This document shows positions 10,974 to 49,220 of a DNA stretch of 64,000 bases, piece by piece. Location of the stretch: contig NC_135915.1 in NCBI RefSeq assembly GCF_964194155.1, forward strand, positions 3,720,001-3,784,000, written 5' to 3'. Made by a program: the position numbers and the translations under genes. The notes below the pieces were generated by a model. It ran no database searches. It was not told the origin of the DNA and worked only from the letters and a program-made list of their open reading frames with translations. Within the stretch, counting starts at the first letter, position 1. Every line of letters starts with the position of its first letter. This DNA is from Cetorhinus maximus. Taxonomy: Eukaryota.

Positions 10974-11166
10974 ATGAGGGTGAGGAGAGATCCGAATCTA
11001 AGGACAATGAATTTCTATTTTGCTAATAAGAATGGAGATCTATCCTATTGGTTTATAACTGTATCTTATTACTCTCCTTGTATTACATTGGAATCTCGGA
11101 CCTTTTATGCACTTAAGTTGATTCAACACTTGTACTGTTCCATCTTGGCAATTTTTAACGTCCCTG
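10974..11166 (+). pseudogene. Exon 1 of GPR139/GPR142-like GPCR pseudogene (N-terminus and first half of TM1)
   Basis: Frame ...TLESRTFYALKLIQHLYCSILAIFNVP-G|gtaaat parallels the intact gene's IFYPILAVIGVP-G|gtgagt. The phase-1 donor is at 11167. The 5' motif gggaacatca (~10934) is shared with the intact gene (~36506). The start codon is uncertain (10974 or 11007). Confidence 0.75.
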
Positions 11167-11639
11167 GTAAATTTCTAACAAGCTCTTAATTCTCTAAGCA
11201 ATGCTTACTGTTCCTCTCAATTACTCTTCACTCCTTATTGCTGCTGTTGATCCTGCTGATCTCTGTCTTGAGTTATTAACTTTGCAAACCATTGCTAACT
11301 GCATTAAAATTCATTTAATTTACATCCTCATCTTGAAATCTGCTCGTGCTCATTTTAAACTGTGTTACCAATTATTAGATCGGTAAACCACGATCAGTGG
11401 CGTTACCCATTTTTATTTATCTATCGCGACGATGGATGTCATTGTTTCCTGTCCAGGTCACAAACTCTATTCTCTATAACTGGACTCACTTACATCCCTG
11501 GCCAATACCTCAGGGTGAACAACGATTTTTGCAACCTCAGTGAACGATTTAACGCTGAGATGGATAACAAAACCAGATCATCTCTGTTACCAATCCTCTC
11601 TGCTATCACCTCAATAACATTGTCCTCTATATCAGCCTG

Positions 11640-11900
11640 CCTGCTGCATTAACTGGCCATGGTTATATCCAGATTCAGGTATTCCAATGCCATGCTAGAC
11701 AACCTCCTTGCCACAACACACATGAGCTACAGTTAGACAAAATCAAAGCTGCCCATACCCTAACAGACACCAACCCCCATTCGCCCCCTAATCCTATAAA
11801 ACCTGATCCACATTAATTCCTGTCTGGCAGAAATTGAATCTTTACGTCTTCATTCATGTATTAAAATTCCTCCATGAAGTCGATCCGAAATTTGAGCCAA
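11640..11900 (+). mobile_element. L2 LINE RT C-terminal fragment
   Basis: AMVISRFRYSNAMLDNL resembles the L2 motif AFVTSRLDYSNALLAGL. Confidence 0.5.
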
Positions 11901-12124
11901 TTCGTCTGTATCTCAGAAAATTATTTCCATTTAGTTGTTCACGCAGCACTTTTTCTAAAGTGTATTTCTTTATTCCTGTGCCATTCTCCGGCTATTATTT
12001 GGGCATCATAGAGCTACTGGTGCCAGCGCTCTAAAGATCAGAAACCTTGAAGTGCCACTGATCGCCATTGCCGTTGGCCAGAATGTGATGAAACACATTT
12101 GGAACGTTTTCAGCGCCTTTGAAC

Positions 12125-12650
12125 TGCTGAAACTTGGTCCGTAAAAGTCCACTTAAAAAGTGCAGGATTGAGCTTAAGAAAATAATTAGGAGAGGAAAGA
12201 GGGGACATGAGAAAGATCTGGCTGGTAAAAGTAGGGAAAATCCCAATGTATTCTATCAGCATATTAATGGGAAGAGGATAAACAGTGAAGGAGGAGAACC
12301 CGTTAGGGAACAAGGGGCACATCTATGGTGGCATCCAGAAGACATCGGTAGAGTGGTGAACGAATACTTCACATTCGTCTTCACCCAAGAGAGAGTGGAT
12401 AAAGGTATCGAGCACGAGCATTCAGTCTTCGAAGTTCTTGAGCAAATTGATGGAGGGAGTGAAAAGGTTTTGGAGATGTTTGCAGGCTTTAAAGTTCACA
12501 AATCTCCAGGTCAGAATGATTGTGTCCCAGACTGCTAACGGGCGCAAGGGAGGATATCGCATGGGTTCTGACCAAAATTTGCAATTCCTCTCTGGCCACG
12601 GGGGAGGTGTCAGAGGACGGGAGAACAGCTAATGTGGTTCCATTCTCTGA
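12125..12650 (+). mobile_element. CR1 LINE ORF2 internal fragment
   Basis: KKIIRRGKRGHEKDLAGKSRENPNVFYQHINGKR...NEYFTFVFT...KSPG, typical of the CR1 ORF2 linker and RT start. Confidence 0.85.
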
Positions 12651-13764
12651 TATCATCTAATTCCCTACGGCAATCCTCACGAAGCAGGTTCTGAAACAAA
12701 ACAGGTTTGAGGGAATTGCGTACAACAGGCATGCTTTCACTGTAAAGGGTTGTTTTTCTCCTTTCTGGCTGACAGGTGTCCCGGGCTCGTCCCGGCTCGG
12801 TTCCACAGTAAGCGAGCTGAATATACACCTCGGGAAACTGTCGATGAACTGTAATTGTCAGCTTCATCATTTGGGCAAGATGCTGACAAGCAATCCATTG
12901 CTCACAGTGGGATAGACGTGTGCAGCAGCTCTATTGTCCCAGTCTCGAAAGTTTGCTGCATGTGCACCAACAGTTTGCGCTCCTGATGAAATTTAAAGGC
13001 AGCGTCCGATCACTGGACAGCTCAGCTCTGTCCATGAGTTACACAGTTTAGTGGGCACAGTACCAGAATAATTTCCTGGATTTTTTTCCGTTAGGAACTG
13101 TCCACTTTGCTCACTTAAAATTTGTTGAACGTCGTCCTCCATTTGAGATAAAACAAGGACTGCTGGAACATTAATTGTCAGTTACCCAAAGCAGCGAAAC
13201 AAGGTTCTCTTAAAATTCTCCAACTGAATGTCGGACCCATCCTTATGAAAGTAAGGGTTATTATATCATACCAAAATGTATTGCAGTATGGAATCTATAT
13301 TATCTTAATGAGCATGCACTGTATATCTATATTGCTACATCAAACACTCATGCATTATAACCTGCGTCTCAAACGCTTGGTGCATCACTCCACTGCAAAT
13401 AAGACTATGTCAGAAATTATTATTTCTGCAATCTTCAGAATGATTGTCAAAAGTGAGATTTATTTTGAAACGCCAGGAACATTCACTCAACATGTTGACA
13501 ACAAATGTTTCAAGTAGGACTCACCGCTTATGAATGACATAAATAGTGAACTGGTTATGGAAAATCAGCCTGAACTGGCGCCCAGAAAAAACTGTTAAGC
13601 GTTCGAATAAAATGTCCGCCACTGTAGCAATGATGCACATCTCCAGGCTCTGCAGAAATTGGATGCACGAAATGTTCCAGATACTGAAGCAAAATACAAG
13701 TTGATATATTGCGCTTTTCTGAAAGATATTAGCAATAGAGAGCAAATCAGCTATCTCCTTGACA

Positions 13765-16700
13765 GAAACAGAGACAGAAATACCTGGAAAAACTCAGCAG
13801 GTCTGGCAGCATCGGTGGAGAAGAGCAAAGTTGATGTTTCGAGTCCTCATGACCCTTCAACAGAACTAAGTAAAAATAGGGAAGGGGTGAAATATAAGCT
13901 GGTTTGGTGGGGCGTGGGGTTGGGACAAGTAGAGCTCGGTAGAAGGCCAGTGATACGTGGCGATAACCAAAAAATGTCACAGACAAAGCGTCAAAGATTA
14001 GTTGAAGGTGGTGATATTATCTAAGCAATGTGCTAATTAAGGGTAGAAAGCAGGACAAACAAGGTACAGATAGTCCTAGAGGGGGTGGGGTGGGGGGAAG
14101 GAATACTAAAATGGTTAAAATGTAGAGACAAAACAATGGGTGGAAATACATTTAAAAATAATGGAAGTAGGTGGGAAAAGAAAAATCTATATAAATTATT
14201 GGAAAAAAGAAGGAGGCGGAAGAAACGGAAAGTGGGTGGGGATGGAGGAGGGAGTTCATGATCTAAAATTGTTGAGCTCAATATTCAGCCCGGAAGGCTG
14301 TAAAGCGCCTAGTCGGAAGATGAGGTGCTGTTCCTCGAGTTTGTGTTGAGCTTCACTGGAACAATGCAGCAGGCCAAGGACAGACATGTGGGCATGAGAG
14401 CAGGGTGGAATGTTGAAATGGTAAGCGACAGGGAGTTCTGGGTAATGATTGCGGACAGACCAAAGGTGTTCTGCACAGCGGTCACCCAGTCCCCGTTCGG
14501 TCTCTCCAATGTAGAGGAAACAGCATTGGAAGCAACGAATGCAGTAGACTAAGTTGAGGGAAGTGCAACTGACATGCTGCTTCTTTTGAAATGAGTGTTT
14601 GGGCCCTTGGACGGAGAGGAGAGGGGATGTGAAGGGGCAGGTGTTGCATCTTCTGAGGTTGCATGGGTAGGTTCTGTGCAAGGTGGTTGAGGAGTAGGGG
14701 TGATGGGGGAGTGGACCAGGGTGTCACGGAGGGAAAGATCCCTACGGAATGCCGCCAGGGAAGGTGAAGGGAAGATATATTTGGTGGTGGCATCATGCTG
14801 GAGTTGGCGGAAATGGCGGAGGATGATCCTTTTAATGCGTAGGCTGGTGGGGTAATAAGTTAGGACAAGGGTGACCCTATCATGTTTCTGGGAGGGAGGA
14901 GAAGGCGTGAGGGCGGAGGATGCACGGGAGATGGGCTGGACACTGTTGAGGGCCCTATCAACCACCGTGGGTGGAAAACCTCGGTTAAGGAAGAAGGAGG
15001 ATATTTCAGAGGAACTGTTTTTGAAAGTGGCATCATCAGAACAGGTGCGACGAAGGCAAATGAACTGAGAGAATGGGATGTAGTCCTTACAGGAAGCGGG
15101 GTGTGAGGAGCTGCAGTCAAGGTAGCTGTGGGAGTCGGTAGGCTTGTAATGGATATTGGTGGACAGTCCATCACCAAAAATTAAGGCAGAAAGGTCAAGG
15201 AAAGGAAGGGAAGTGTCAGAGATGGATCATGTGAAAATGATGGAGAGGTGGAAATTGGAAGCAAAATTAATATTTTTTTCCAGTTCCGACAAGAGCATGA
15301 AGCAGCACCAAAGTAATCATCGATGTACCAGAGAAAGAGTTGTGGGAGGGGGCCGGATTAGGACTGGAACATGGAATGTTCCACATACCCCATTAAGATA
15401 CAGGTGTTGCTGAGGCCCATGCAGGTACACATAGCCACACTTTTATTTGGAGGAAGTGAGGGGAGTTAAAGGAGAAATTGTTCCGTGTGAGAACAAGTTC
15501 AGCCAGGCGGAGGAGAGAAGTGGTGGATGGGGATTATTCGGGCCTCTGTTTGAGAAAGAAGCGGAGAGCCATCAGACCATCCCCGTGGGATGTCCTTGGT
15601 GAAGAGGAGGTGGTTGCGGCCAGGGAACTGGAAATTGTTGATGTGACGTAAGGTGTCAGATGAATCGCGGATGTAGTTGCGAAGGGACTGGACAACGGGA
15701 CAGAGAAGGGAGTCAAGATAACGAGAAATGAGTTCCGTGGGGCAGGAACAGGCTGACACGAACGGTCTGCTGGGACAGTTCTGTTTGTGGTTTCTGGGTA
15801 GGAGGTAGAAGCAGGCCGTCCGAGGTTGGGCGACTATCAGGTTGGATGCTGTAGAAGGAAGATATCCAGAGGAGATGAGGTCAGTGACAGTCCTGGAAAC
15901 AATGACTTGATGTTCAGTGGTGGGGTAATGGTCCAGGGAGATGTAGGAGGAAGTGTCTGCGAGTTGACGCTCAGCCTCCGCGAGGTAGAGGTCAGTGCGC
16001 CAGACAACAACATCACCACCCTTGTCAGCGGGTTTGATGACAATGTTAGGGTTGGACCTGAGAGAACGGAGTTCAGTAATTTCAGAGAGAGACAGGTTAG
16101 AATGGGTGAGAGGCGCAGAGAAATTGAGATGAATAATGTCACGCCGACAGTTCTCAATTAAACGATCAAGAGAAGGTAAGAATCCAGAGGGAGCGGTCCA
16201 GGTGGAGGGAGAATATTGGAGGTGGGTAAAATGATCCGTTGATCGGGGAGAGGACTCCTGCCCAAAGAAGTACGCACAGAAACGAAAGCGGTGGAAGAAG
16301 AGTTCAGGATCGGGCCGAGCCCAAAATTCACCGAGATGAGGGCGTAAGGGTATGATACTAAGTCCTTTGTTGAGCACTGAACGTTCAGCATCGGAGAGGG
16401 GAAGGTCAGGGGTTATAGTGAATACCCGGCCGGGGCTGGGATTGGAAGATGGGATGGGAACAGAGGGACAGAGTGGAGTGTCCTGGATGGGTGTTGGTGT
16501 GGATGAGTTGTTGGATCTTGCGTTCCTTAGCACCTGAGAGAAAGATAAAAAGTTTCTTGTTGAGGCGTCGGATGAGACGAAGAATAAAATGAAACTGGGG
16601 GCACGCACAGCTTTGAAAAAGGGTGCTGCGGTGCTGCTGGAGGGAGATGTCGAGTGTGTTCATATGGCGGAGCATGGCACTGAGTGTGGATCTCAGAATG

Positions 16701-17385
16701 CGACGGGAACTGCAGTACGATGAGCATTGTATGTCCCGGAGATACCTCTAATCCTGGGTGGGTTCAAACATGAGGAATGGAAATTCAGTTGCAATCCACG
16801 TGGGGTAATTTGGAGACGCAGACAGTCACTGAGAAAGGAAATGTGGCTGTGAAAGCGGGTTTTAGTAAACACCTTGTCAAACACCAGGAGAGAAATGGAA
16901 AGCAATGAAGGTGAACAAGGCAAAAGAGAGATTCGAAAATGCTGACGGAGACTAGGACAATACTTCTTCAAGGTAGGCATTTCTTGAAGAGAACTGCAGC
17001 AATTAAACACAGAGATAAAAGCAAAGAACTGCGGCTGCTGGAAATGCAAAACAAAAACAGAGACAGTAATACCTGGAGAAACTCAGCAGGTCTGGCAGCA
17101 TCGGCGGAGAAGAGCACAGTTGAAGTTTGGAGTCCTCATGACCCTTCAACAGAACTAAGTAAAAATAGGAAAGGGGTGAAATATAAGCTGGTTTAACGGG
17201 GGAGGGGGGGTGGGATGGGTTTGTTGGGACAAGAAGTCAGTGATAGGTGGAGATAACCAAAAGATGTCACAGACAAAAGGATAAAGAGGTGTTGAAGGTG
17301 GTGATATTACCTAAAGGAATGTGCTAATTATGAGTAGAAAGCAGGACAAACAAGGTACAGATAGCTCTACTAGGGGTGGGGTGGT
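13765..17385 (-). mobile_element. Penelope-like retroelement, near full length but disrupted: RT plus GIY-YIG endonuclease, flanked by direct pseudo-LTRs
   Basis: IVIKPADKGGDVVVW (ORF 15499-16608), YIDD at 15316-15327, and NLVYCIRC..C..LYIGETER.LGDR.AEH GIY-YIG (14256-14681). The ORF start MPTLKK is at ~16980. Direct repeats lie at ~13765-14110 and ~17050-17385. Confidence 0.93.
13829..13867 (-). ncRNA. Minimal type I hammerhead-like motif in the Penelope pseudo-LTR (variant core)
   Basis: The minus strand reads AGUU-CUGUUGA-A-GGGUC-augag-GACUC-GAAACAUC-AACU. Stems I and II pair, but core A6 is substituted. Confidence 0.55.
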
Positions 17386-17719
17386 CTCTCTGAGATGGAA
17401 ATATAGCAGACTTCTAGTTTGGAGGATGGTGCAGGATTCTGAAGTCAGGAATTGTTCGGACTCGTGCTTTACAAACCGAACACAAGAACATACCCCCTCC
17501 CCTGCCCGGCAACAATCGCACACTCCCCCACCTTCCGGCATGCCTCTCTGTCCCAGTTCCTGATTTTAAATGCATTATTTTAGTGTATATTGCATTTTAT
17601 CCTTTTAATACCAACTTGTTTCATTTCACTCTTCTCTGCATCTTTCAGGTGTCCAGTCATTTCACCAGTGACACTCCGTCTTCCTGAATTATTTTACTAT
17701 CCTTCTCATTGTTTATTAA

Positions 17720-18760
17720 TATTTCTCACTTTCTAAACATCTGAAATATTTACAAGTACTTGTGTGTGAGTACGCCCTAGGCCATAAAACATATAAGAAG
17801 AGCAGTGGGGCCAACACCGAACCAGCGATCCCTCTTGGACAGTTCTTCGTAATGTGAAAAAAAGACAACCATTCTCCCCTGCTCTCTGCCTTCTGTAGCG
17901 AAACCAATTTCAATGCCTGGCTGTTATCAGCCTTTAATCCCATGTGTTTCAAAGATGTTACAAGTCTGTTATGTGGCAGACTTTGCAAGGCCAGGAAAAT
18001 TGGCAATGTCTGTCAGGAGTAAGCTTGCGTCATCAAATTGAACCGAACTTAATGATTTAATTCAGCCGACAGAGTCTGTATTGGTTCTTTTGAAGATCAA
18101 AAATTGTCCCGTTCCCTGGCTCTCTCCCGATCCCTGTATTTTTCTCCTTTCATAGATTTGTCAATTTCCCTTTAAATAGGTACATAATCAATTTCCACAA
18201 TCCTATCAGCCAGTCGATTCCAAATCCAACGCACTCACTAAGGTAAAACGATTTCCCTCACATTACATTTTTATATCAATCATGTTGAATCTGTGCCCTT
18301 TGGCAATCGAACTCTGAGCGAATGAAACAGATCTCTCCATTTAAATGATTTCACCACTCATAATTCTAAATAGCTCCATCCAGTTTCCTCCTATTATCCT
18401 GTGCTCTATGGAGAACAAGCCCAGCTTCTCCACATTATCCACGGACCTATAAAATCCCTCATATTGGGAATAATTCTAGTAACACGCATCTATGCCAACT
18501 CAAGATTTTCACATCCTTCCTGAAATGTGTAACCCAGCATTGCATAAAGAACGCCAGGTGGAATTAAATTGGGCCTTGATTCAGGTTCTCCATAACTTCC
18601 TGTACTTTATACTCTGTGACTCAATTATAAAGCCCAGAATTCAATCTACTTCACTAGGACCATTATTATCCAGCCCTGTCAATTTCGGAGCTTTGTTCAC
18701 TATTACCGCAGGTCTTTCTGTTCTTGCACCCTCTATTAATATTCAGAATTTACCTTCTTT
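17720..18760 (-). mobile_element. Old CR1 LINE fragments (RT GxxQGSVL.P.LF region and 3' end)
   Basis: Minus-strand ORF ...CPRGIAGSVLAPLLFLYV. The downstream part resembles CR1 3' ends elsewhere in the window. Confidence 0.6.
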
Positions 18761-19442
18761 TGTATCTCCATCTTCATCCTTCCAACATGACATATCTGAA
18801 ACACCTTTCATTCAAATTAAATATTGGGGAGGCTGGATCTTTGTTTTAAATCCCCACCTCAAATCCTGTCCCCCAACTCCATCCCTCTCCCGGTAACTGT
18901 TTCAGGCTGAACCAGACTATTCCAAAATTGGTGTCATACATTCAGACTGTCACTAAGATGGCCAATTTCAACTTGCGGCAACATCCCCGACTGTTTTTCA
19001 TTAAAGAAATACAGCACTGAAGTGGTTAAAGCATTCCTCCTCAGGAAACTTCAATAGAGAACAGGATCTAAGGAGAAATTATTCCCAATGTCTCCTCTAT
19101 CTGTAACACATCTATCACGCCTGGCTCCTGTCCACACATGTTCCCCCATCACTACTCACTTCACCCATCACCACGGTTAACCCCGATAGCCCGTCACTTC
19201 TGGTTAGCACCATCACCTCTGTCGCCCCTGTCATTTCTACCTCGCCTCTCTGCGGCCAGTTCTTGTTATTTACTCTTTGTTTCATGCCAATGTATCAAAG
19301 AAATATCTCATTAGTTCTTTCATGTCAATTTATCACAATACATCACAGGGTTTTGGAGCACCTCTCAATAACATTTGATCAAGCTGGTAACGTTGGCCCC
19401 AGCCTGATGTAAAATGCCATTGTGTATTTCCCTTCCTGACAG

Positions 19443-20317
19443 TTAACACATTCACGATTGTGATCCACAAGTGCAAAAGTTGTGGTCTCTCCAAATGTCT
19501 CACTTGTTAACTAATGGTCATGTCAGTGGCCGATATACTGGTCGTTATATTCGGCCTGATATTGAGAGTTTTTCCGACTGTTTATTCGGAACAGTTTTAT
19601 TTCCTGAAGTCCATCCCCCTGTTTAACATCCATTCCATCCCGTTTTCTGCAGCCGCTGCCTGTTCTGTCTTAACCTTCACCTTGGACCAATTTGTGGCCG
19701 TTTGTTGCCAGAAGCTGAAAGATAAATGTGCCAATTAGAAAACAGCAGCTGTGATGCTGGGAACTGTGGCTGTGATGAACTGTTTAAAGAACATATTCTG
19801 CTCAATTGTGTTAACGGGTGTGTATCAACTATTGAACACCCCTTGGTTCTATGGGGTAACAACTTAAGTTCTGGAATCTCCGCGTTGGACCACAGTCGAA
19901 TGCCTCCACAACATTTTAACCCCGGGTGTGCCGTTGACCTGATACTGCTGCTCAACGTTTTCACTGTCAGACACATTTTAGTGACCAAGACAGCCCACAT
20001 GAGACTGCGGGCTCACAGCAGTGGCGAGAGTTGCAGAGATGGAGAGTATCAGGAAATCAATAATTTTAGTGCTTCTTATGTTGGGAAATTTCTTCCTGTT
20101 ATGGGCAATGCTAATGGTTTATTCTAAATGGGGGAGTATGAAAATTTCGGGTATTATTCTGTGCTTCTACATTCTTTGTTCAGGATATGGCCTTCATGGT
20201 GAACCTGCTGCGTTCCTGCACAGGCACTGCGGTGCATGCCATGACCCCCTACTAAGGTCAGAGACCAAGAGTGTGCTGAAATATGCGTTTACTCCAATTC
20301 TTCAATTCATTAAATGA
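19443..20317 (+). pseudogene. Exon 2 of GPR139/GPR142-like GPCR pseudogene
   Basis: Acceptor ttcccttcctgacag|TT. Reads NTFTIVIHKCKSCGLSKCLTC*LMVMSVADIL..DQFVAVCCQKLK..*KTAAVML..LLNVFTVRHILV..EMESIRKSI..GNFFLLW, collinear with the intact gene. Stops at 19508 and 19736, plus frameshifts. Confidence 0.92.
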
Positions 20318-20589
20318 AGTGAAGATCTTAATTACAGACTTCCCAGGCTTCTCTCGTTTTAACTGATATTTACAGCGGGCGTACAGACTTTCACTTGGGG
20401 AAATGAATCAGTCAGAATTTCCTGACATTTCCCAATTAATTTCATATTTCCAGCGGGATTAGCGGGTGGGTGTGGAGGGAACGAATGCCACCACCGACAA
20501 CTTTCCCGTCTCGTTGGCTGGTTCCATCTGACGACCACCATGTTACATTATGACAGCATCAATCTTGTTCACCGTGAAAAAAAAAAATA

Positions 20590-21360
20590 CAGGAAACGAT
20601 GGAGAGAGACAGAGGGAAGAGGCAGACAAGGAGAGACAGAAACACAGCCGGAGAGAGAGTCAGCGAGAACGAGAAACAGAGGGAGAGAGACAGGTATAGA
20701 TGTACAGTGATAAAGATAGTCAAGTAAAGATAGAGAGATTGAAATAAAGAAGGGAACGAAATAAAGAGAGAGAGGAATAGGGGCATGGAGAGATGACGAA
20801 TTGGAATGGTGATAGACACAGGCAGAGACACACAGAGCGAGAGAAAGGGAGAGGGAGACAGGGATAAACGGAGAGAGAGAAAGAGAGAGAGATACAAAGA
20901 CAGAGGGATTGTCAGAGAGAGGGAGAGGCAAAGAAATAGATAACGAGTTGCCAAGAAAGTTAAAAAGATGGGGAGAGTGAGAGAGAGGGACTCCGACAGA
21001 CAGAGATGTAAAGAGGCAAAGGGAAAATAGAAAGAGAGAGTTAGACGGAGAGAGAGAGAGGGATAGAGAGTGTGTGTGTGAGAGGGAGAGAGAGAGAGAC
21101 AGGGAAAACAATGGAGGGAGAGAGAAAGGGAGAGAGTGAATAAAGTGACATAATAATATGGAGCGAGAGAGAGATGGGAGGGAGACAGAGAGAGAGATAA
21201 AGGGAGAGATACAGAGAGAGAAGGGGAAAGAGACATAGAGAAGCGAGGCACACACATAGAGATAGAGCAGATAGGGGAGGAGAGATGTAGAGAGAGAGAG
21301 AGAGACAGAGAGAGACAGCGAGAGAGAGTGAGAGAGAGAGGGAGAGCGAGATACAAATAG
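20590..21360. repeat. GA-rich low-complexity tract
   Basis: Near-pure purine + strand with (GA)n and (GACA)n runs. Confidence 0.95.
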
Positions 21361-21364
21361 ACAC

Positions 21365-22650
21365 AGGTCAGAGTTTTCCCTGTCCGTTGCTGTCGGGTGT
21401 GACATTAGGCCTGAGGTGACAAAATGGCAGGAAGGTCAAAAATCACTTTCACGCCGCTATGAAAACAAGTTGCAAACTCCCGCTGCGTGAGTCAAACCCA
21501 GGCCGACTTTCCCACTCCCAGGTGCCTGGGAATTCATTTTAATGTCCCTGCAAATCATTATAAGCCATACTCGTCAGATTCATCCCAGAACGTACCACCA
21601 TCCAGGCAATCGCACCGACGTGTTTCACAATTGAACATAAGTGACGAGCACCTGAGATCTGCACTGTGCTGGAGAATTTAAGTTTTGCTCGTCTACCTTA
21701 TTTGGAGTAGAACTCGCGGCCATCAGCGCCAGACTTCGTAGGCTGCATCTTCTCACTTTTGGCGGGGGGGGGGAGGGGGGAGGCTTACAGGCTGGGCACT
21801 GCCCACAAGTGTAAAGAAGGGATGTCATTTCAACGGCTGCAGGGCTGGGGCTTGCTTGGGGAAAGGGGAGAAGTGACCTCAGGCAAGGGAAGAGGCTGCA
21901 GGGCAAGATCAGTGCTGGGGGAGGAGGCTATCAAAGGTGATGTTTGAGGGAACATTCTGGTGTTTGTACGTGGACTCAAGATGGTCAGGGCTGAGGAGGC
22001 ATTCTCCGGATTAGTTGAGGCTTGATAGAGATGTGAGGGTGTGTGGATCATTGTGAGTGGTGATGTCAACTGAATGGCTATCAGTGAGGTGCCAGTGAAT
22101 GTGTGATGGCCTTGCGAGCGTTTAAATATAGAATGATAAGATGGCTGCCTTACTCTAGCGGCACGGATGAGATTGCGCGCCCTCCATCTGCACTGGGTGG
22201 CCAAAGGCTCCCGTGGATCATTGGCACTGACCACCACCGTCACCCCTCACAAGCTGGAGTTGTTCGATTGCTGCTCCTCCTGAGGCCAGAGTGGGTTGGA
22301 GGGCATCAGGTTGGGCCACCGAAAGGCATTCCAGTAACGGCCCACTGAACTCTTCTTGGCTTTCAGGACCATGTCTTCAGTGGTGGGATCCTGGTCTGCA
22401 AGCACTGAGAATAGGATGCGCAGCTGCATTTTATGTATGGCACCCGGAGGGAGCAAGCGGTGTGCTAACAGCACGGCGGAACATTCAGAGGCCACCCAGA
22501 AGCGAGAGGACGTGATCCCTCTGTCTGAGGACCATATGGCATGAAAAGTTGCCACTGTGGCCACTCGGGGGTTGGGAAGTGGATAAAGCTTCTTTCTTCC
22601 CACACAGAACTGCACTTAGCGCAATCCTGTGCTAATTCTGTTCACAGAGG
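21365..22650 (-). mobile_element. Decayed PIF/Harbinger-type transposon remnant with a Myb/SANT-like DNA-binding domain
   Basis: The minus strand reads MVLKAKKS... and then VTVVVSANDPREPLATQCRWRARNLIRAARV, resembling the trihelix signature W..VA..V......R...QC.KR..DL. No transposase was seen. Confidence 0.55.
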
Positions 22651-22957
22651 CGAAGTGGGAGAGTAAAATTGGCAGCGGCACAGGGAGAGAGACAGACAGA
22701 GGGGAAGAGCGTGAGAGCAAACGAGAGAGGGAGATCGAAACAGAGAGAGATAGAGAGAGACAGATTGAAAGTGAAAAAAAAAACACAGCGATATTGAGAG
22801 AAGGGCTGGGAATAGAGTCAGGCTGAGGAAGTTGCAAAGAGAGATTTAGACAGGGGGAGGGCCAAATATTGTAGGAAATAGAGAATGAGAGAAGCTGCCG
22901 CACACACATGCACACATATCCACAGATGCAAACACATACAAAACGGAAGTGAGAGAG

Positions 22958-38244: not shown

Positions 38245-41200
38245 TTCCATAAGACATCGGAGCAGAAGAATGTCATTCCGCCCATAGAGACTCCTCCGCC
38301 ATTCAGTGAGATCATTGCTGATCTGATAATCATCAACTTACCAATTTTGCCTTTTCCCCAGAACATTTGATTCTCTGACTGACAAAAATCAGTCGAGCTC
38401 AGTGTTGAATATAATTAACGACCCATCAACTACAGCTCTTTACGGGAACTAATTCCACACAAACACTACTCTCTGAGAGAATACATTCCTCCTCATCTCT
38501 GTATTAAATTGGTGAACCTTTCTCTGAAATGATGCCGGCTCGGACTAAACCCTCCCAGAAAGGGAACCAACTTCTCAGCATCTACTGTGTCACGGCCCCC
38601 AGGAATCCAATATGTTTCCATAAGGTCTACTCTCATTCCATTAAGCTCCAATGAGTAAACTCCCAATATAATCAATCTGCCCACAGGAAATCGTCCCTCC
38701 ACATCCAGTACCAGCCTATTGAAACTTCTGTGGGCTGCCTCCACTTCCAGCATATCTTTCCTCAAATAAGGAGACCAAAATTGTTGACATTATTCTAAGT
38801 GAATGCCTTGTATAGTTCTAGCATGACTTCCCCATTTTTATAATCCATTCCCTTTGAAATTAAAGCCATCACTTTATTTCCCTTCCCTATCACCTGCTGA
38901 AATTAACATTTTCATATTCATGCACGCAGGCTCCCAAATCCCTCTCTGCTGCAGCTTTCTGCAGTCGTTCTCCATTTAAGTAATATTGAGCTCCTCTATT
39001 CTTCCTGCCAACGTGCATAAACCCACAGTTTCCGATAATATATGCCATCTGCCAATTTTTGCCAACTCACGTAACATTTCTATATGCCCCTGTGGGCCCT
39101 TTGAGTCTTCCTCACCACTTGCCTTCGCACCAATGTCTGTGATAACTGGAAATTTGGCGACAGTACATTCACTTTCATCATATCAGCCATTAATATATAT
39201 TGTAAGTAACTGTGGTCGCAGCACTGATTCCTGTGGCGCTCCACTACTTACAGTTTACTATTCTGAAAATACCCCCCTTATCTCAGGTCTCTGTCTTCTA
39301 TTAGTTAGCAAATCCTCTATCCATGCTAGTGTACTACTCCCAAGACCATGATCTCTTATCTTATTAAGCAGCCTTGTGTCTGGTACCTTATTGAACGCCT
39401 TTTTGGAAATACAAGAATATTGCATATCCTGGTCCCCCTTCACCAATTCTGCTTTTTACTTCCTCAAATAATTCTAATAAATTTACCAGGCACGATTTCC
39501 CCATCATCAACATGCTAACTCTGCTTGATTATATTATGTATTTTAAATGCTCTGCTCTCACACTCCTTGTAATAGACTTTAACCTTTTCCCAATAGCTCA
39601 TATTAAGCTATTTGGCCTATAGTTGCCTGAGCATTTTTCTCCCTGCCTTTTTGAATATGTTTGTAACTTTGGCAGATTTCCAATCTTCTGAGTCTTTTCC
39701 AGAACCAAACGATTCTTGGAAGATGACTGTCAGTGCATCCATTATTTCTGCAGATACTTCCTTTAATATCCTAGGATGCAACCCATCAGGGATTTATCGG
39801 CTTTTAGCTCCATTAGTTTCTTGATCACTTTTTCTCTAGTGATAGTTATTTCTTTATTCCCTTCCCCCGTTTTCCCCCTGATTATTTAGTATTTTAGGAA
39901 TGGGATTAGTGTTGTCTACCATGAAGACTGATGCAATGCATTAATTCAACTCCTCTGCCATTTCCTCGTTCCCCATTCTCATTTTTACAGCCTCATTCTC
40001 CAAAAGGCATTAGTCCACTTAAGCCTCTCTCTTCATTTTTTTTTATATTTAAAGCAGCGGCTATATAACGTTTTTATAAGACCTGCTAGTTATCGCTCAA
40101 TATTTATTTTCCCAATCTTTAATGTATTTTTTGTCATCTTTTCTTGGTTTTAAAAAAAATCCTAATCCTCTGGCTTACCACAAACCTTTGCCACATTGTA
40201 TGTATTTTTATTTCAACTTGACTCTATCCTCATCATCTTGGGTAAACTATGGTTGATTGTGTCCATCCTACAATCCTAAATCCTCACGGGCATATATCGC
40301 TTATATGAGTCATGAACTATTTTCTTAAACGTCTGCCATTGTTCATCAACCGTCTTTTCTGTTGAACTCCTTTCCCAGACTACTCCAGCCAACTCTGCCC
40401 TCATTCCTTTGTAATTATCCGTTTGTAAGTTTAGCACAGTTGTTTCGGACCCATTTTCACTCTCAAACTGAATGCTAAGTTAAACCATGTTATGGTCATT
40501 TTTTTCCTAGGGGACATTTTACACTTAACCTTTTACATTTATTAACCTGCCTCATTCCACATTAACAGATCCAAAGTAGACTGATCCCTGATTAGATCCA
40601 CAGCAAATTGTTCTAGGAAACTCTCCCGGATACACTCTATGATGTGATTTTCCCAAACAACATGGAGTTTCAAGTCACCCATGATTAATGTAGTGCCATT
40701 TTTTCATGTCATAACTATCTCCTGACTTATTCTCTTTCCTACGGTATAGCTACTGTTAGGCACCCTGTAGACTACTCGCACCACTGTCTTCACCCCCTTG
40801 TTATTTCTTACCTCAACCCATGTGAATTCTACATCTGCTGATCCAAAATCATTTCTTGCTATCCAACGTATTCGATCTCGTCGAAGAAAGATGTCCCACC
40901 ACCATTTTCATCCTGCCTGTAACTTTCGAAAATCACATGTCCCTGAATAATTAGTTATCAGCTTTGATCTCTTGGTAACCACGTCTCCGTAATGGCTATA
41001 AGATCATTTCCATTAACCTCTATTTCTGCCTTTAATTTATTTATTTGGTTCTGAATACGGCCAGCAATTAAGTAATGAGGCATGAATTTTCACTTTTTTA
41101 CCATTTCCCCATTTGAGTCAATTTGCTGTAGTGTTTTTTTATGTTTCTAAACTCTGTCCCTTACTGTCACATTCTGGATATCATTACCTAAATAGCTGCC

Positions 41201-42230
41201 CTGCAAAGTTCCCACATTGTTTTGCTTCTTAAACCTACAAATCCCCTCTCCAGAATTCCCGCTCACCTATTTATCAGAAAACACTCGCTAAAGCCCCAGT
41301 TATTCAATTCCCCACGACGCTGGAATCTGCATTTTTAAAGTGAAGCCCTTCCCACCCGAATAGCTCCCTCCTTTCCCAGCACTGGCGCCGGTGCCCCTGA
41401 AACACATTTTTCCCACACCAAACTTTGAGCACAAATTTAAATCCGTGACTTTATTTCTCCTATGGCAGTTTGCCCGTTGTTCAGGTAGTAATCCCAAGAT
41501 ATTTATCTCAGATGTTTTGCTTTTTAATTTAGCTGCTAACTGTTCGAGTTCATTCAGCAGAATTTGGTTTCTAGTTCTGTCAATGTCGCTGGCATCAACG
41601 TGGATGGTGACAATTTGATTTATCCCCTCCACTCCCAGTTCCTCTCCAGCCCTGAGGTGATGTCCTCGCACCAGGCAGGCAAGAGAGCCTTCGGAACTCA
41701 TGCAGTGAACAATACTCTTCGCCAATTATTATGTCCCCTACCACTACTGAATTTCTTAATTCCACCCCTAGCTGGAATGGCTGCCTGTATCACGGTGCTG
41801 TGGTCGGTTCGCTCATCCTTCCTGCAGTCCCAGCTCTCATCCACACATCTTCCAAGAACCTAGCCACTGTTGAACAGTTGCAGGGGCCAAGGCCCCTTTA
41901 ACGTGACCTCCTTGATCCCCATTACTAAGTCACCTGCGTTCAGACCATCCTGTCCCTGATCCCAGAACCAATTTTAAATTCCTGATCTGAGGGGTAAGAC
42001 CACCTCCTGGAGCAAAGTGTACGCATAACTTTCCCCTCCCTGATGTGGCACAATGTCAGCAGCTCGGAAACCAGCTCCTTAACTCGGATCCGAATGTTCT
42101 CGAGCTGCAAACTTTTGCTACTGATGTGCTCACTCTGGATCAACTTGGTGTCCAACAGGTCAACATTCTGCTGCAGCTACACATTAAATGTCCTGCCGTC
42201 GCTAATGTATTTTAATTAATTAATTAACCA
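38245..42230 (-). mobile_element. Near full-length decayed CR1 LINE (ORF1 with coiled coil and SGNH esterase-like domain, ORF2 APE-RT, 3' end)
   Basis: LQLENIRIRVKELVSELLTL and IVTIHVDASDIDR...LKSKTSEINILGLLP (ORF1), then KAFNKVP..RLLNKI..HG...LAWIEDLL..RRQR (RT). Confidence 0.92.
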
Positions 42231-42479
42231 AATACATTAGCATTTAAAGAATCTCCCACTAGAATCACTTGATTGTTATTTTTTTTTGCACAACAGGACC
42301 GAATGTATACTGAAGAATCTATTTTCAGAGGAAAAACACCCGACAGAGTACAAAGCAAACTAAAGACTTCAATTTTATTTTACCGACTACACATACCCAC
42401 CAAACAGCTGTTGTCGCGCTCTTTTCCCTCTCTGCTCTTTCAGGGTCTATCGCCTCTCTCCGGAATCTTAAATGATCTC

Positions 42480-43400
42480 TTTTTAATTGGTGATACAAAA
42501 GTTGGTGGGAAGGCAAGTGGTCAAGATGACACAATGTTTCCACAGAGGGGTACAGATAATTTAAGTGAGTGGGAAACACTTGGCAGCTGGAATATAACGT
42601 GGGAAAATGAGAGGTTATGCACGTTGGCACGAAGAATAGAGGAGCTGAATATTATTTAAATGGGGAATGACTGCAGAATGCTGCAGCACAGAGGGATTTG
42701 GCAGTCCGCCTGCATGAATCCCCCCCAAAAAACAAATACATAATTTCAGCAGGTGATAGGAACGCGACAGGATTGTTGGCATTTATTCAAAGGGAATGGA
42801 GGGAAAAATTGGGAGGCTGTTCTAGTACTTTGCACAGCATAGGTTAGGCATTGCCTAGAATACTGTAAACAGTTTTGGCCCCTTATCTAAGGAAGCATAA
42901 GCTGACATTAGAGGCAGCCCAGAGAAGTATCACTAGATTGTGCCCGGGTATGGAGGGTTTTCTTCTGTGGAGAGGTTGAGTAGATTAGACCTGTACTCAC
43001 TGGAGTCTGGAAGAATGAGATGCAGCTTTATTAAAACAAATAAGATTCTTGGGGAGCTTGGCAGGGTAGATGCTGAGAAGTTGATTCCACTTGCGGAGGG
43101 TCGAGGAACAGAGGGCATTTTCACAGAGTGTCGCCTATTTAACACAGAGATTAGGAGGAATTTCTTCAATCAGATCGTAGTGAATCGATGCATTATTTAT
43201 TGCCGATGGCGTTGAAGGCTGGGTCATTAGTCATATTCAAGGCAGATTTTCAATCAAAAATGCAACAAAAGGCTCTGGTAAATGTAAGGAAAGTGTAGTT
43301 GAAGATTATCAGGTCAGCAATGACCTCATTAAATGGCGAACAGATTCGTTGTCCGAGTAGCCTACTTCAGCAAATAGGTTTAATGATCTCTTGGAATCAT
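42480..43400 (+). mobile_element. CR1 LINE 3' fragment
   Basis: DTKVGG and ERLSRLDLYSLE.GRMR..FIKT.KIL...RRNFFNQ.VVN. Confidence 0.9.
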
Positions 43401-43594
43401 GCTCTCTACTCTCCCCCTGCTCAAAAATGCTGTGTGGCCATTCTCTCCGTGTGCTCCAATGGTCGCTCACTCAACTCACACTGTCTCACTGTTAATGTTC
43501 ACGCTGTTCCTTTTGGTCTCTCCCTGTTATTGGCACCGCTGTTTCTCCCACTCTCCCACTCTCATTGCCTGCTCTGTTCCTCTATCACTCATAG

Positions 43595-43865
43595 AGTCAG
43601 AGGGTCACAGTGTATCCGAGTTATACAGCATAGAAACAGGTCTTAAGGCCCATCATGACCGTGCCAGGAGTCAAGTACCTATCTATTCTAATCCCATTTA
43701 ACAGCTCTTGGCCCCTAACCCTGTATGCGATGCCGTTTCAAGTGCTCATCTAAATACTTCTTAAATGTTGTGAGGGTGCCTGCCTCTACTACCCACTCAG
43801 GCAGTGTGCTGCAGTTTCCAACATCATTCTGGGTGATTTTCACCCCGCCTCTAAAATCCTGCTAA
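43595..43865 (-). mobile_element. CR1 LINE 3' end fragment within CT-rich simple repeats
   Basis: tacagcatagaaacagg...ggccc...aaatacttcttaaatgttgtgagg matches the CR1 3' end at 49850-50050. Confidence 0.7.
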
Positions 43866-44139
43866 CAGCCTCGCTGCTTCACTCGCAGTTTCTCTCATAC
43901 TCTCCCGCTCCTAATGGCCCACAGCCCTCTCACTCTCTTAATGCTAATGGCCCCCTTGCTCCTCTCTCACTCTCTCACTGTTATTGGCCCCGCTACTCCT
44001 CTCTCACTGCTAACGGCCCCACTTCTCCTATCTCACTCTTCTCCAGTACAGTGGCACCCCTCAAATTGCCAGAACCCCCCTTATTTATGCAGCTACAGCG
44101 TCGTAATCCACAGTCATAACAGATGAAAAGTAAGCATTT

Positions 44140-46380
44140 ATAACATCACCTATGTCCTTCGCTTACAGCACAATCTGCCACTTTGTTCTCTGATGGGTCC
44201 TATTATTTCCCTGGTTATCCTCAAGCCCTGAATATAATTATAAAATGCCTTGGGGTTTTCCATTACCTTTCCCTCCAGTGTTTAGTAATGTTCGCTCTCC
44301 TAACTACTTGATAACTATCACACGCACTTTTTATGCTTCTCCAGGGCTTCCCCGTTGTTTTAACCTCCTGTATCTAGAATCAGTCACTTTTCCTTTTCCT
44401 TATTCAATCCTCCATATCCCTTGACTACCAGTATCCCCTGGAATTCTTTGTCCTACCCCTCACCTCTACCGCAACATGTTGGCCCTGAACTCTCACTATT
44501 TCCTTTCCGAAAGACTCCCGCAGGCCTGATGTAGACTTTCCTACAATTAGCTACTCCCAGTCCACTTTGGCCACAGCCTGTCATAAAATATGGAAGTCGG
44601 CCTTCCCAAATTTCAGGATCTTTAATTGCAAGCCATCTTTATCATTTTCTATAACTACCTTAAAACCGCAAGAACTATGGTCTCTCACCCCGAAATGGTT
44701 TCCCCCACGGACACTTATACCACTTTCCTGGCTTCATTCCCTAAGATTAGGTCCAGTGCCGCCCCTTCTCTCGTAGGGCTTTAGCGTTGGCTCAAAAATC
44801 TCTCTTTCAAGTACTTTAAGAATTCCAACATATCGAAGCCTCTCAACCTAAGTCTATCCAAGGTAACAGTGGTGAATTTAAATTTCCTACTCTTAATACC
44901 CTTGTACACATCTCTGAGATTTTCCTACATATCCGCTCCTCTAGCCCCCCTGACCCTTTGGAGGTATTTAGTGCACCCCCAGCAAAGTGATTGCCTCCTC
45001 TAATTAAGTTATCTACAGATGGCCTCATTTGAGGAACCTTCTAAAGTAACATCAATCCTTGAGGCTTTAATTTACTTCTTGATCAAGCGTGCAATGCCGG
45101 CTTCCCTTTTAACTCCCCACCACCAAGTCGCCACCAGCCCCCTGTCATGCCTGAACATTCTATACCCTGGCACATTGAGCTGTCAGTCCTGCCCTGCCAT
45201 CAACCATGTCCCTGTGATAGCAACAATATCGTATTCGCATGTGTTAATCAGCACCCTCAATTCATCTGCCCAACTTTTAAGAGTCCTTTCATTACAATAG
45301 CAGTGAACCAGCCTTGCATTATTCCCCTGTGCCTTAACTGGTCTACGTTTGCTCTACCTTCCAGACGCACTTAGTTCCTCTTCTATATTAGGCTTTGCAC
45401 CACCCTCTACTCTACCTTCACTCATTATTAAATAACAATACTGAATTAGTTTTACCTTCCCCCCACAACCCCACCCCAACATCACTAGCAAACCTCCCCA
45501 CAAAGATTTTGATCCTGTGCCAGTTCACGTGCAACCTGTCCGACGTGTATAGGTGCCAACTTCGCCAGAAACATTCCCTGATCAAGGAACCAGAAGGCCT
45601 CCCCCCAGCAACATTTCTTCAGCCACGCATTCTTCTTCTCTATCCTCATTTTCCGATACTCACTTTCACGTGACAAGCGGGTCATCCAGAGGTTGCAAGC
45701 TTTGAGGTCCTGCTTTTTAATCTGCTGCCTAGCTCCCTATGTTCATTTTGCAGGACCTCATCCCTCTTTCTACCTAAGTCGTTTGTACCAATGTGAACCA
45801 CGACCTCTGAGTTTTCCCTCCCTCTTCAGAATGCCCTGCAACTGTTCTGTGATATCCTTGACCCTGCTACCGGGGACGCAACACACCATTCTGGAGTCAT
45901 GCCTACAGCTGCAGAAGCACCTTTCTGCATCCTCACTATTTAGTATCCTTCCACTATTGCTCTAGCACTCTTACCCCTCCCCACTTGTGCATTCAACACA
46001 CACACAGTGCCTGGAATGTGACACTGGTTGCACTCTCCAGAGGAACATTCACCCTTACCCTTTTCCAACACAAAAAAAATAGGATTTCCTCATTACCTGC
46101 CTGGTGCTTTCATCATTACATACCTGTGGCTTTCCTCATTACATTCCTGCCTCCCTTCTTCTGACTGGTGGTCACCCACTCCCGCACTTCCTCAAGCTGC
46201 TGAGTGACCACATCTAAAAATGTTCTGTCCACGTAACTCTCAGCTTCGCGAGTGCAACGCTGTGTCACCAGCTGACGCTAACACGCCGAAACCCATTGCT
46301 CAAGCTGATAAATCCAGTGGCACTTCCTGCACATGTGGTCATTCACATTGCATTGCGTGTCGAAGAATCCTCATGCAAAT
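44140..46380 (-). mobile_element. Decayed CR1 LINE 5' part (ORF1 esterase-like region and endonuclease)
   Basis: Minus-strand EERICRKISE.C..VLRVGNLN.P..W (APE domain) and NAWLKKCC..E.F.F.D (esterase). Confidence 0.75.
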
Positions 46381-46649
46381 CACGTGACTGAGTCCCTTTG
46401 CCATACGTTTTGTTTAATTTTTATGTAGCAAAAGCTGTTTCCCTAAATTTAATCCATGTAAAAAAATGATTTAGCTTTTTTTCTGGCAAACTAAAGTCAA
46501 ATGCGCTGACTGTTACCTCCGGTAATGTAGTTTTAAAGTGGAGAAAAAAGAAAACACCTTACTCACTAACTACAATCCAGCTCTCTCCATTATCCTGACA
46601 TCACTCCTTTCGAATTCCTGCACCGCCCAGTACGTGTGTGAGAACAGGC

Positions 46650-46930
46650 TCTTTCACAATAAACTCCGCTATCGCTCTTTATACAGCCGCTCCACTCCCT
46701 CAAAGGGGCACTCCGCTACACACTTTACACAGCCGCTCTGCTCCGTCACAGGTAAACTCCTGCTCTATGTGCACCCGCTCCACTCTCGCTCTTTCTCCAG
46801 CCGTTCCATTCCCTCACAGGTAAACCCCCACTCTATATGCAACCGTTCAACTATCGCTCCTTATACAGCTGCTCCGCTCCCTCACAGGTAAACTCCTGAT
46901 CTTTAAACACCCGCTAACGTCTGGCTCTTT
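46650..46930. repeat. 68-bp tandem repeat, ~3 units
   Basis: cacaggtaaa occurs at 46747, 46815 and 46883. Confidence 0.8.
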
Positions 46931-47197
46931 TTTGTTGTTTCGCCTTTATTGTTTGTTTAATTTCCCCCTATATTTAAATTACTAAAATTTATAATAATCA
47001 ATAAGTGATTGTAACTCAGCTGCTAATTTCAATCTAAAAACAAAGCTAAAAGCTGAAATACTCACCAGCCAGTCGCCTGCCTGTCCTCCTGTGACCAAAC
47101 TCTGTTTTGGTGCTGAAATCCTGTCCTCCCTGTGAGGCTCAGACACGGAAAATGTTTAATCAATAATTTCCAGTACATTCTCCCCTCTCTCTGACAG

Positions 47198-48099
47198 TTA
47201 ATTTACTGGCAATTGTTATCCTGTCGCGGGGAAAGTGCGGCCTCTCCACCTGCACCACTCGCTACCTGGTGGCCATGGCAACGGCGGATCTACTGGTCAT
47301 TGTCACAAACGTCATACTGAACAAGATCAATAGATATTATTTCCCACTGAGTTTCCTGGACCTCACTCCTGTGTGTCGTGTTCACGCTGTCCTACAGGTT
47401 GCAGCCACAGACTGTTCTGTCTGGTTCACCGTCACTTTCTCTTTTGATCGATTTGTAGCCATTCGTTGCCAGAAGCTGAAAACAGAATATTGCACCGGGA
47501 AAACAGCGGCTGTGGTTCTAGCGACAACTGGTATCCTCCTCGGTTTAAAAAACATACCCCAATACTTTACACTGGAACCTGGACACATAATCAACAATGT
47601 ACCGTGGGGCTGTGTGGCAAAGCCAAGCGTCTTTACTAATCCTAGATGGGTTGGATTTAACTGGTTTCAGTCGGTTTTAACCCCTTTGCTCCCATTCGGA
47701 TTAATTGTGTTGATCAACGCTCTGACAGTCAGACACATTTTAGTGACCAGTCGAGTCCGGAAGGGACTGAGGGCTCAGAGTAAGGGAGAGAATCACAGTG
47801 ACGCAGAGATGGAGAGCAGGAGGAAGTCTATGATTTTACTCTTCACCATAACCGTCACCTTCATCCTCCTGTGGTCGGTGTATGTTATACAATTCTTCTA
47901 TATTGATGTGCGAGAGTTAATTTACCTCACCGAACCTGAATATATCTTCCAAAAGGTCGGGTTTATGCTACTGAAATTAAGTTGTTGCACAAACACATTT
48001 ATTTACACTGTGACTCAGTCCAAGTTCCGAGAGCAGATGAAGAAAACGGTGAATTATCCGGTTACATCAATTATTCAATTAATGAAGAAAAACACCTGA
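47198..48099 (+). CDS. Probable G-protein coupled receptor 139-like, coding exon 2 (TM1 second half to TM7 and C-tail). The spliced product is 321 aa.
   Basis: Acceptor tctctctgacag|TT. Uninterrupted frame VNLLAIVILSRGKCGLSTCTTRYLVAMATADLL...PVC...SFDRFVAI...PWGC...TPLLPF...FILLW...SCCTNTFIY...KFRE, stop TGA at 48097-48099. Confidence 0.95.
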
Positions 48100-49220
48100 C
48101 TGACAGACACCTCAGCCAATCAGAGAGATCCGGCCACTGACGGACAGGCGCTACTGCCAATGAGAAAGCTCCACATGCTGACTGACAGTCGCCTCACCCA
48201 ATCAGGGATCGCCGCTGCTAACGTCCAGCTGGTTGTGCCAATCAGGGCAATCAGCCCCATAATTGACAGGCGCGGCAGCCAATGGAGTAGCATCAGAATT
48301 TCATGCACAGCCACCTCATCAAATCAGGGAGAACCGCTCGCTGAATGACAGCTACCTGAGCCATAGTGACCTACCGGCTGACTGACAGTCGCTTCATCCA
48401 ATCAGGGAGCTGCAGCTTTTTGCCCAGAGTCACGTGGGCCAGTCAGGCTATTATTCCTGTGCGCCGACATTCATCTCAACCAATCAGGGAGTGACAACTG
48501 CTAACTGATAGACAGTTCAGCCAAACATAATGATAAAAACACAAAACTGCGGATGCTGGAAATGCAAAACAAAAGGTTCTGTTGAAAGGTCATGAGGACT
48601 CGAAACGTCAACTCTTTTCTTCTCCACCGATGCTGCCAGACCTGCTGAGTTTTTCCAGGTAATTCTGTTTTAGTTCAGCCAAACAGTTCATTCCAACAGC
48701 TGACTGGCATCAGCTTCATCCAATCACGTTGCTGCAACCAGTGACTCACAGATAGTTCAGCCAATCAGCGATCTTCACCAATGACCACAGAAGTATCAGC
48801 CCATCAGGGAGCTGAACACCATGACGGACAGCCGCATCAGCCAATCAGTAAGCTCCGACTGCTTCGGTCAGCACTTTAATTTATCAGACACCTCAAAGCA
48901 ACTCCCCCCATCGAGCGCGGAGATTCGTTCAATCACAGCGTTCAATAATTGACTGATAGCTCCTCAAACAAATGGAGAGTCCCTGCCCTGCCCGATTGGA
49001 GCGTTTCAGCATGAGAGTGACAGCTCTAATATCCAATCGGAGAGATGCAACAGCCCTGGAATTTCCAGGAGGAATGCAAATCCCGCTTCAAAATCCGACC
49101 AATTGCCTTTCTCACCCCAACAAAACCTATCGCTGCCCACTTGGCGATTGACAGCATCGTAAGCCAATGGCTGAGTTCCTTGCAGATCATTGGCCAATCG
49201 AAATTTGGCCCAATTGCTTC
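48097..49220 (+). repeat. Degenerate ~41-bp tandem array containing TGACTGACAG-N9-CCAATCAG
   Basis: CCAAT or a variant occurs at ~48116, 48157, 48198, 48238, 48279, 48398, 48480, 48720, 48762 and 48841. The array decays toward 49200. Confidence 0.8.
48528..48671. mobile_element. Short Penelope pseudo-LTR-derived insertion with an internal inversion and a 14-bp target site duplication
   Basis: agttcagccaaaca flanks it at 48514-48527 and 48672-48685. It contains the hammerhead-like CUGUUGA...GACUC-GAAACGUC at 48575-48613. Confidence 0.8.

Follow-up and report, generated by a model that had tools for sequence, protein, structure and literature searches.

The 64,000-nucleotide window of the Cetorhinus maximus genome analysed here carries two receptor genes on its forward strand, an intact one (gene B) and a dead one (gene A), which belong to a very large family of orphan G-protein-coupled receptors (GPCRs) of cartilaginous fish. 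The family is real and apparently undescribed, is large and clustered, and is in birth-and-death evolution. We give about an even chance to what we consider its best reading, namely that of a putative chemosensory repertoire that has escaped description and is most likely expressed in olfactory-type neurons. The window corresponds to C38:3720001-3784000 of this genome (G000, C numbers denoting its contigs), and feature coordinates given below without a contig are those of the window.

Gene B encodes a protein of 321 aa in two coding exons, its sole stop codon being terminal. Exon 1 (36531-36594, + strand; 64 nt, 21 codons plus 1 nt) starts with the ATG at 36531, ends in ...GVP+G at a GTGAGT donor, and supplies a very short N-terminus, with few residues ahead of the first transmembrane helix (TM1), together with the first half of TM1. 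A 10.6-kb GT...AG intron (36595-47197, +), in phase 1 between VP and VN, separates it from exon 2 (47198-48099, +), which follows ctgacag, contains the remainder of TM1 through the stop, matches Pfam 7tm_1 (E 6.5e-21) and has the predicted fold of a seven-helix receptor (predicted local distance difference test score, pLDDT, 84.6). Gene A lies on the same strand and is split at the same VP/VN site in phase 1. Its coding exon 1 (10974-11166, +; 193 nt, phase 1; donor GTAAAT with GT at 11167) encodes an N-terminus of the long type, ~45 residues ahead of TM1 (the start codon is uncertain, alternative in-frame ATGs lying at 10839 and within exon 1), and the first half of TM1. Its exon 2 (19443-20318, +, also after ctgacag) is a pseudogene with 7 stops in the best-scoring frame as well as frameshifts, and is 46% identical to an intact relative. 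Thus, the initial annotation had correctly described two co-oriented paralogues of a single two-exon design, one intact and one dead, with divergent N-termini. The two genes share 31% identity across the broken frame and their intact relatives 51%; they come from different old subfamilies. A tblastn search of the window with gene B exon 2 returned genes A and B and no third copy.

A genome search with gene B exon 2 yielded 5,321 first-look candidates, the best 131 of which were scored and found to be 72-100% identical, 78 of them being situated on C38 at 0.41-5.65 Mb, on both strands. Queries from three other subfamilies produced 129, 131 and 130 matches in largely different clusters, spread over all 65 Mb of C24, over C41, C44, C46, C48, C60 and others, and over C22, C118, C37 and others; the last of these sets overlaps in part with that of gene B exon 2. 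Many subfamilies coexist at 45-55% identity. The family motif, a 31-base degenerate pattern in TM3, recovers 26/26 diverse members, 25/30 loci of the clade of gene B (B-clade) and 15/15 loci in each of two other clades, and picks up 0/30 gene A copies and 0/4 non-family receptors. Genome-wide it occurs at 1,866 exact loci (956 + 910), with 0 for the reversed-pattern control. An independent exon-1-plus-donor pattern occurs at 1,013 loci (490 + 523; control 0) and fits 8/14 of the first exons found without it, which again leads to ~1,800 loci. The initial annotation had named a mere handful of copies as the outcome that would speak against a receptor repertoire, and both counts show many. They are counts of assembly positions, and distinct genes are fewer than loci because top-hit sets collapse at 99% identity (to 16/30, 4/15, 6/15 and 17/18 clusters) and many matches lie on small contigs. 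Exon 2 was intact in 22 of 50 motif loci (Wilson interval 31-58%), sampled from the first 100 listed and located on contigs C5-C19 only, and failed in the other 28, bearing out the birth-and-death evolution that had been proposed. Provided that this sample is typical, ~580-1,080 intact copies of exon 2 exist in the genome. In a protein database, gene B exon 2 matches 2,119 clusters at 90% identity; among the 120 matches listed, 119 are named shark or ray proteins and one is unnamed, nearly all being called 'probable' or 'putative' GPR139. On C24 (65.16 Mb) family members are found over nearly the entire contig, the outermost at 0.03 and 65.15 Mb, which gives this chromosome-scale piece the look of one long receptor array. 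C14 contains a dense cluster at 20.71-21.32 Mb, where introns are short (~0.7-0.9 kb) and several truncated copies stand head to head, 1.4 kb from each other.

As judged by their substitution patterns, intact copies are constrained as signalling proteins while their predicted pockets change fast. We placed 32 generic pocket positions, in class A numbering, by alignment. Among 18 diverse members, mean entropy was highest in the pocket (2.13 bits), followed by extracellular loops (1.89), other TM positions (1.36) and the intracellular face (0.94). Gene B shares 13/32 pocket sites but 93/106 intracellular sites with one paralogue (L136), and 11/32 and 89/106, respectively, with another (L075). 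The ratio of non-synonymous to synonymous substitution rates (dN/dS) was estimated from disjoint pairs formed among 100 unique intact exons, in bands of synonymous divergence (pS). It amounted to 0.93 (0.71-1.16) in the pocket and 0.31 in the intracellular face at pS 0.05-0.15 (31 pairs), and to 0.87 (0.71-1.07) and 0.21 at pS 0.15-0.40 (26 pairs), so that predicted pocket sites evolve ~3-4 times faster than the intracellular face; overall dN/dS of intact copies was 0.41-0.54. For the pocket sites, codon models of four clades differed in likelihood from omega = 1 by 0.25, 1.04, 1.77 and 3.60.

The family belongs to the broad GPR139/GPR142-related group, by virtue of its phase-1 intron before N1.50 and its nearest named relatives. 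It also has the hallmarks of class A receptors (7tm_1, seven helices, N1.50, D2.50, DR at 3.49-3.50 and NxxxY in TM7), P6.50 and P7.50 being absent. Among solved structures the best relative of gene B is human GPR139 (E 8.4e-8; the PDB entries 7vug and 9m42 are structures of GPR139/GPR142), and W6.48 is kept as well; these two receptors are the source of the automatic name under which the family is found in databases. Unlike the family, however, GPR139 and GPR142 are each a single gene in this genome. A GPR139 motif search found one locus, on C267, with 86% identity to its human counterpart and 95% to GPR139 of sharks and rays. The matches to this gene were the gene itself, a C25 gene at 55% identity which clusters with GPR142, one on C5, and after these chiefly members of the family, at 26-33%. 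In GPR139, GPR142 and two further paralogues of this genome the acceptor precedes the TM1 Asn at the same place and in the same phase, so the equivalent intron position that the initial annotation had given for human GPR139 holds for these shark genes, which were the ones compared.

Phylogenetic reconstruction sets the family apart. In the main tree (60 rows, LG+G4, with 16 rows of the first set left out), the family including its Callorhinchus member forms one clade (support 98/95) covering sharks, rays and a chimaera, with a salamander gene as sister (100/99). Together with two single-copy paralogue groups it makes up a clade at 99/98, with GPR139 and GPR142 apart at 100/98. A quick mixture-model tree agrees on the family clade. 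Against two outgroup receptors, support for the ingroup is 100/99; it includes unnamed invertebrate-like rows, six of which are placed on the family's side (92/72, under a long-branch warning). Among 1.84 billion representatives, a profile search found 134 matches with E values of 1e-30 or less. The 20 that were looked up comprised 10 named proteins of elasmobranchs or chimaera, five unnamed ones, and five of bony vertebrates or placed beside them (salamanders, coelacanth, two teleosts and a UniRef entry of unread species). Orthology with GPR139, which the initial annotation had counted as evidence against its proposal, is rejected: a constraint joining the family and GPR139 in one clade fails the approximately unbiased test (p-AU 7.86e-35), and the true orthologue is the C267 gene. 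Assignment to the OR (olfactory receptor), TAAR, V1R or T2R families was likewise rejected on family profiles, Pfam giving 7tm_1 in 18/18 members and two weak matches, 7tm_4 in 1/18 (E 7e-4) and TAS2R in 1/18 (E 3e-3).

Two further single-copy paralogues lie outside the expansion. The one on C5 (L064, C5:143968827-143969726) has relatives in sharks, rays, chimaera, coelacanth, lungfish, sturgeon, gar and teleosts, and no tetrapod appears among the 120 matches listed; these relatives look single-copy, and the best match, at 100%, is named from Cetorhinus maximus itself. The other (L244, C8:40642408-40643385) is 61% identical to a coelacanth protein and, in this assembly, has one in-frame TAG in exon 2. 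Neither is the direct orthologue of the family, as each has its own single copy and the salamander gene is closer. The C5 gene is possibly a member of one of the GPR210 sets: GPR210A and GPR210B are orphan paralogues near GPR139/142 described in coelacanth, gar and teleosts (PMC6504862), and the available part of that paper contains no shark data ('shark' and 'cartilaginous', 0 matches). Two single-copy groups in this range are united with the family in the 99/98 clade, but the family is a separate branch from both, and the sister of the expanded family is the salamander gene.

The kinship implied by the label 'GPR139-like' is overstated, although the broad group and the common intron stand. 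Shark and human GPR139 agree at 27/32 pocket sites, gene B and human GPR139 at 3/32. Of the residues F109, H187, W241 and N271, reported to be key for the activation of GPR139 by Trp and Phe (PMC5430874), gene B has V, Q, W and F, so that only the Trp is kept; R244 is not kept either. With 3/32 pocket sites and 1/4 key residues retained, amino-acid ligands should not be assumed, and the ligands of the family are likely not Trp or Phe bound as in GPR139.

Promoters of the family have a recurrent architecture. Of 64 first exons gathered, 49 have an ATG 17-31 codons before the donor, and these were condensed to a non-redundant set of 32 promoters, which includes a few long-N-terminus genes scored from an internal ATG. 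Patterns were chosen after viewing the sequences, or from general background, and were scored within 200 nt of the ATG against shuffles. The putative forkhead-type motif TGTTTRTT occurs in 15/32 promoters (shuffle mean 1.2), TATAWA in 16/32 (3.3) and TGYAAC in 17/32 (6.1). The published O/E core TCCCYNGRGA (PMC3247239, Table 1), with at most one mismatch, is present 60-130 nt upstream in 13/32 promoters compared to 33/1,113 flank windows (shuffle maximum 3), this interval having been picked after the first promoter scoring; over 20-200 nt the figures are 14/32 and 31/384. In gene B itself, the predicted elements are a site CTGTTTGTTCA (36364-36374, +), 167 nt upstream of the ATG, recurrent in family promoters and putatively of forkhead type; an O/E (Ebf)-like site TCCCTGAGGT (36415-36424, +), weak, with two mismatches to the published core; and a TATA box, TATAAA (36437-36442, +), 94 nt upstream of the ATG. 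Exon 1 of GPR142 and of the C5 paralogue was not found within 10 kb. Mammalian OR promoters are rich in O/E, homeodomain and TATA sites (PMC3247239; PMC12547500), and Foxj1 acts in zebrafish and mouse olfactory neurons (PMC10810531).

We infer a sensory role from the variation of the pocket and from the promoter motifs. The family multiplies by tandem and block duplication and loses copies by mutation. We suggest that a common intracellular face would couple all members to one G-protein pathway, that each pocket would recognise different ligands, and that a compact forkhead/O/E-like/TATA promoter would drive expression in one, sensory, cell class. The more specific proposal, to which we would give somewhat less than an even chance, is that cartilaginous fish possess a distinct family of olfactory receptors that evolved independently and comprises hundreds of intact genes; such a family would have originated from an orphan peptide-receptor-like gene that is single-copy or lost in bony vertebrates. 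The resemblance to the chemoreceptors of vertebrates (OR, TAAR, V1R, V2R and T2R) extends to clustering, birth and death, a constant cytoplasmic face with a variable pocket, many short N-termini, and O/E-like and TATA sites near the start. In contrast to them, the family sits on an unrelated branch and has its coding region split by an intron. A parallel of route is found in nematodes, where the Srw/Srx chemoreceptors likewise expanded from a neuropeptide-receptor-like ancestor, and in similar expansions of peptide-receptor-like GPCRs in other invertebrates. The Srw/Srx Pfam models match GPR139 proteins and some family members (Srx 3/18, Srw 1/18), and the Atlas neighbours of the family include Srw clusters, but the family is presumably an independent expansion in cartilaginous fish.

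Several observations weigh against a chemosensory, olfactory-type repertoire. In the catshark, every olfactory neuron is a microvillous cell of the Go/TRPC2 type, as suits V2Rs (PMC10116579). At the promoters, the homeodomain motif TAATKR is marginally enriched (18/32 vs a shuffle mean of 13.0, p 0.03), and the O/E form YYYCARRRR is not enriched (12/32 vs 8.8, p 0.12). A one-mismatch O/E core at 60-130 nt is absent from 19/32 promoters. Furthermore, the 32 promoters are homologous and hence not independent; as they share one ancestor, they are evidence of a conserved module and not of its tissue. Ebf and forkhead factors also work in B cells and other tissues. The initial annotation had called for dN/dS at pocket residues, and the pocket is indeed well above the intracellular face, but it does not exceed 1, which relaxed constraint fits equally, and the youngest pairs (pS < 0.05, n=31) are without a pocket excess (0.44 vs 0.62 in the intracellular face). 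No RNA run is listed as containing exon 2. No joint between exon 1 and exon 2 was seen among the joints shown for contigs of four presumed-RNA runs from related organisms, tissue unstated; contigs of these runs on exon 2 have many differences, and three of those listed run past a splice site into the intron. These RNA observations speak neither for nor against expression.

The pseudogene adds a further point of this kind. Among 40 scored matches to gene A exon 2, 26 have 89-100% DNA identity, and its lesions are also present in near copies elsewhere: 30/30 fetched relatives are broken and 29/30 carry the same stop at codon 22, which means that amplification extends to dead genes. Gene A was already broken when at least 26 copies of it arose, frequently as part of a block that included B-type genes. 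Since such A/B blocks recur on C38, where six gene A copies are each followed by a B-type gene 27.2-27.8 kb further on, the pair in the window is a copied cassette and not a fresh tandem duplication. Seven gene pairs on C38 recur at an offset of 748.8 kb; of five compared, four are identical over 3.9 kb and the fifth differs at 1 base, as would result from duplication in the very recent past or from a duplicate in the assembly. At the same offset, a block of at least 290 kb is repeated between ~2.73-3.02 Mb and 3.48-3.77 Mb of C38. Copy number is therefore partly blind to function, and the reading of the initial annotation, a chemosensory- or immune-type family, is partly supported.

Taken further, these findings could mean that most copies are passengers of unstable segmental duplication, with selection acting on a smaller functional core of any role. 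The copied dead gene, the near-identical pairs, the shrinkage of top-hit sets to 16/30, 4/15 and 6/15 clusters and the 28/50 sampled loci that are not intact would all agree with this. It is nevertheless an unlikely account of the whole, given that the intracellular face of intact copies is under purifying selection, that many subfamilies at 45-55% identity are common to sharks, rays and a chimaera, that gene B matches 2,119 database clusters at 90% identity, and that promoter motifs persist across subfamilies. We consider equally improbable an immune-sensing repertoire of leukocytes or barrier epithelia, which would resemble formyl-peptide receptors or MRGPRs in detecting molecules of microbial or damage-derived origin. 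Immune receptor families, too, are typically clustered, turn over fast and vary in the pocket, and Ebf and forkhead sites fit B-lineage control. The family, however, is not near chemokine or formyl-peptide receptors, its best solved sequence relative being GPR139; its predicted fold neighbours are mostly peptide receptors, and the O/E-plus-TATA layout near the start resembles OR promoters. Least probable of all, with a small share of our confidence, is a function outside sensory and immune tissues, for instance in gut endocrine cells, gonads or brain, with endogenous peptides or metabolites as ligands. GPR142 responds to endogenous amino acids, and neuropeptide receptors appear among the fold neighbours predicted by modelling; the same response is documented for GPR139 (PMC5430874). 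Receptors for endogenous ligands, though, conserve their pockets between sharks and bony vertebrates (27/32 and 31/32 sites), and self ligands would hardly explain hundreds of variable pockets.

Gene A exon 1 resembles a long-N-terminus subfamily at other loci, with an asparagine-containing repeat of the DQNLRTIDWNV type; in that subfamily (L182, L191-L201, L219-L220) repeat number varies, N-glycosylation sequons are present and each unit has one ATG. The gene A intron (11167-19442, +; 8.3 kb) contains mobile-element-like remnants, including broken ORFs (open reading frames) on the minus strand at 14259-16659, presumably of a Penelope-type retroelement; Pfam gave no match in four mobile-element-like ORFs of the window. 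Beginning at the gene B stop codon, an array of TGACAG...CCAAT units (48095-48531, +) comprises nine 32-nt units at ~41-bp spacing, each with TGACAG-like and CCAAT elements, and at least three such composites follow the stop in 30/30 B-clade loci and 0/77 other loci tested. Tandem arrays of the window lie at 2608-4962, at 36926-37954 (84-bp, inside the gene B intron), at 53496-53709 and at 61174-61450, the periods given being 32, 84 and 32; the last two arrays are copies of a single unit in inverted orientation.

Literature searches aimed at the family and at GPR210, to which subscription papers were mostly closed, found no description of the family, and two supplements may list it. GPR139 is not mentioned in the available text of PMC11979771 (main text without its supplement) or PMC8455134, nor shark in that of PMC12208981, and in the accessible body text of the Squalomix tandem-gene preprint (10.1101/2025.06.08.657570), figure labels and supplements apart, 'GPR' occurs solely as GPR91. 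Cartilaginous fishes have been described as relatively poor in GPCRs and olfactory receptors (PMC8455134), and only 34 V2R genes, with 4-9 in every other olfactory family, have been counted in the catshark in spite of its large organ, labelling for v2r1, the presumed co-receptor, giving 5.94 neurons per mm (PMC10116579).

Public annotations carry ~1,900 loci, several hundred to a thousand of them with an intact exon 2, under the misleading name 'probable GPR139'. Whatever its tissue, the family is likely to be among the largest receptor families in these genomes. If olfactory, it would be at least ten times as large as the whole known set of shark smell receptors, and the view that a few dozen V2Rs account for shark olfaction would be overturned. 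The long-standing puzzle of large olfactory organs and few known receptors in sharks thereby becomes directly testable.

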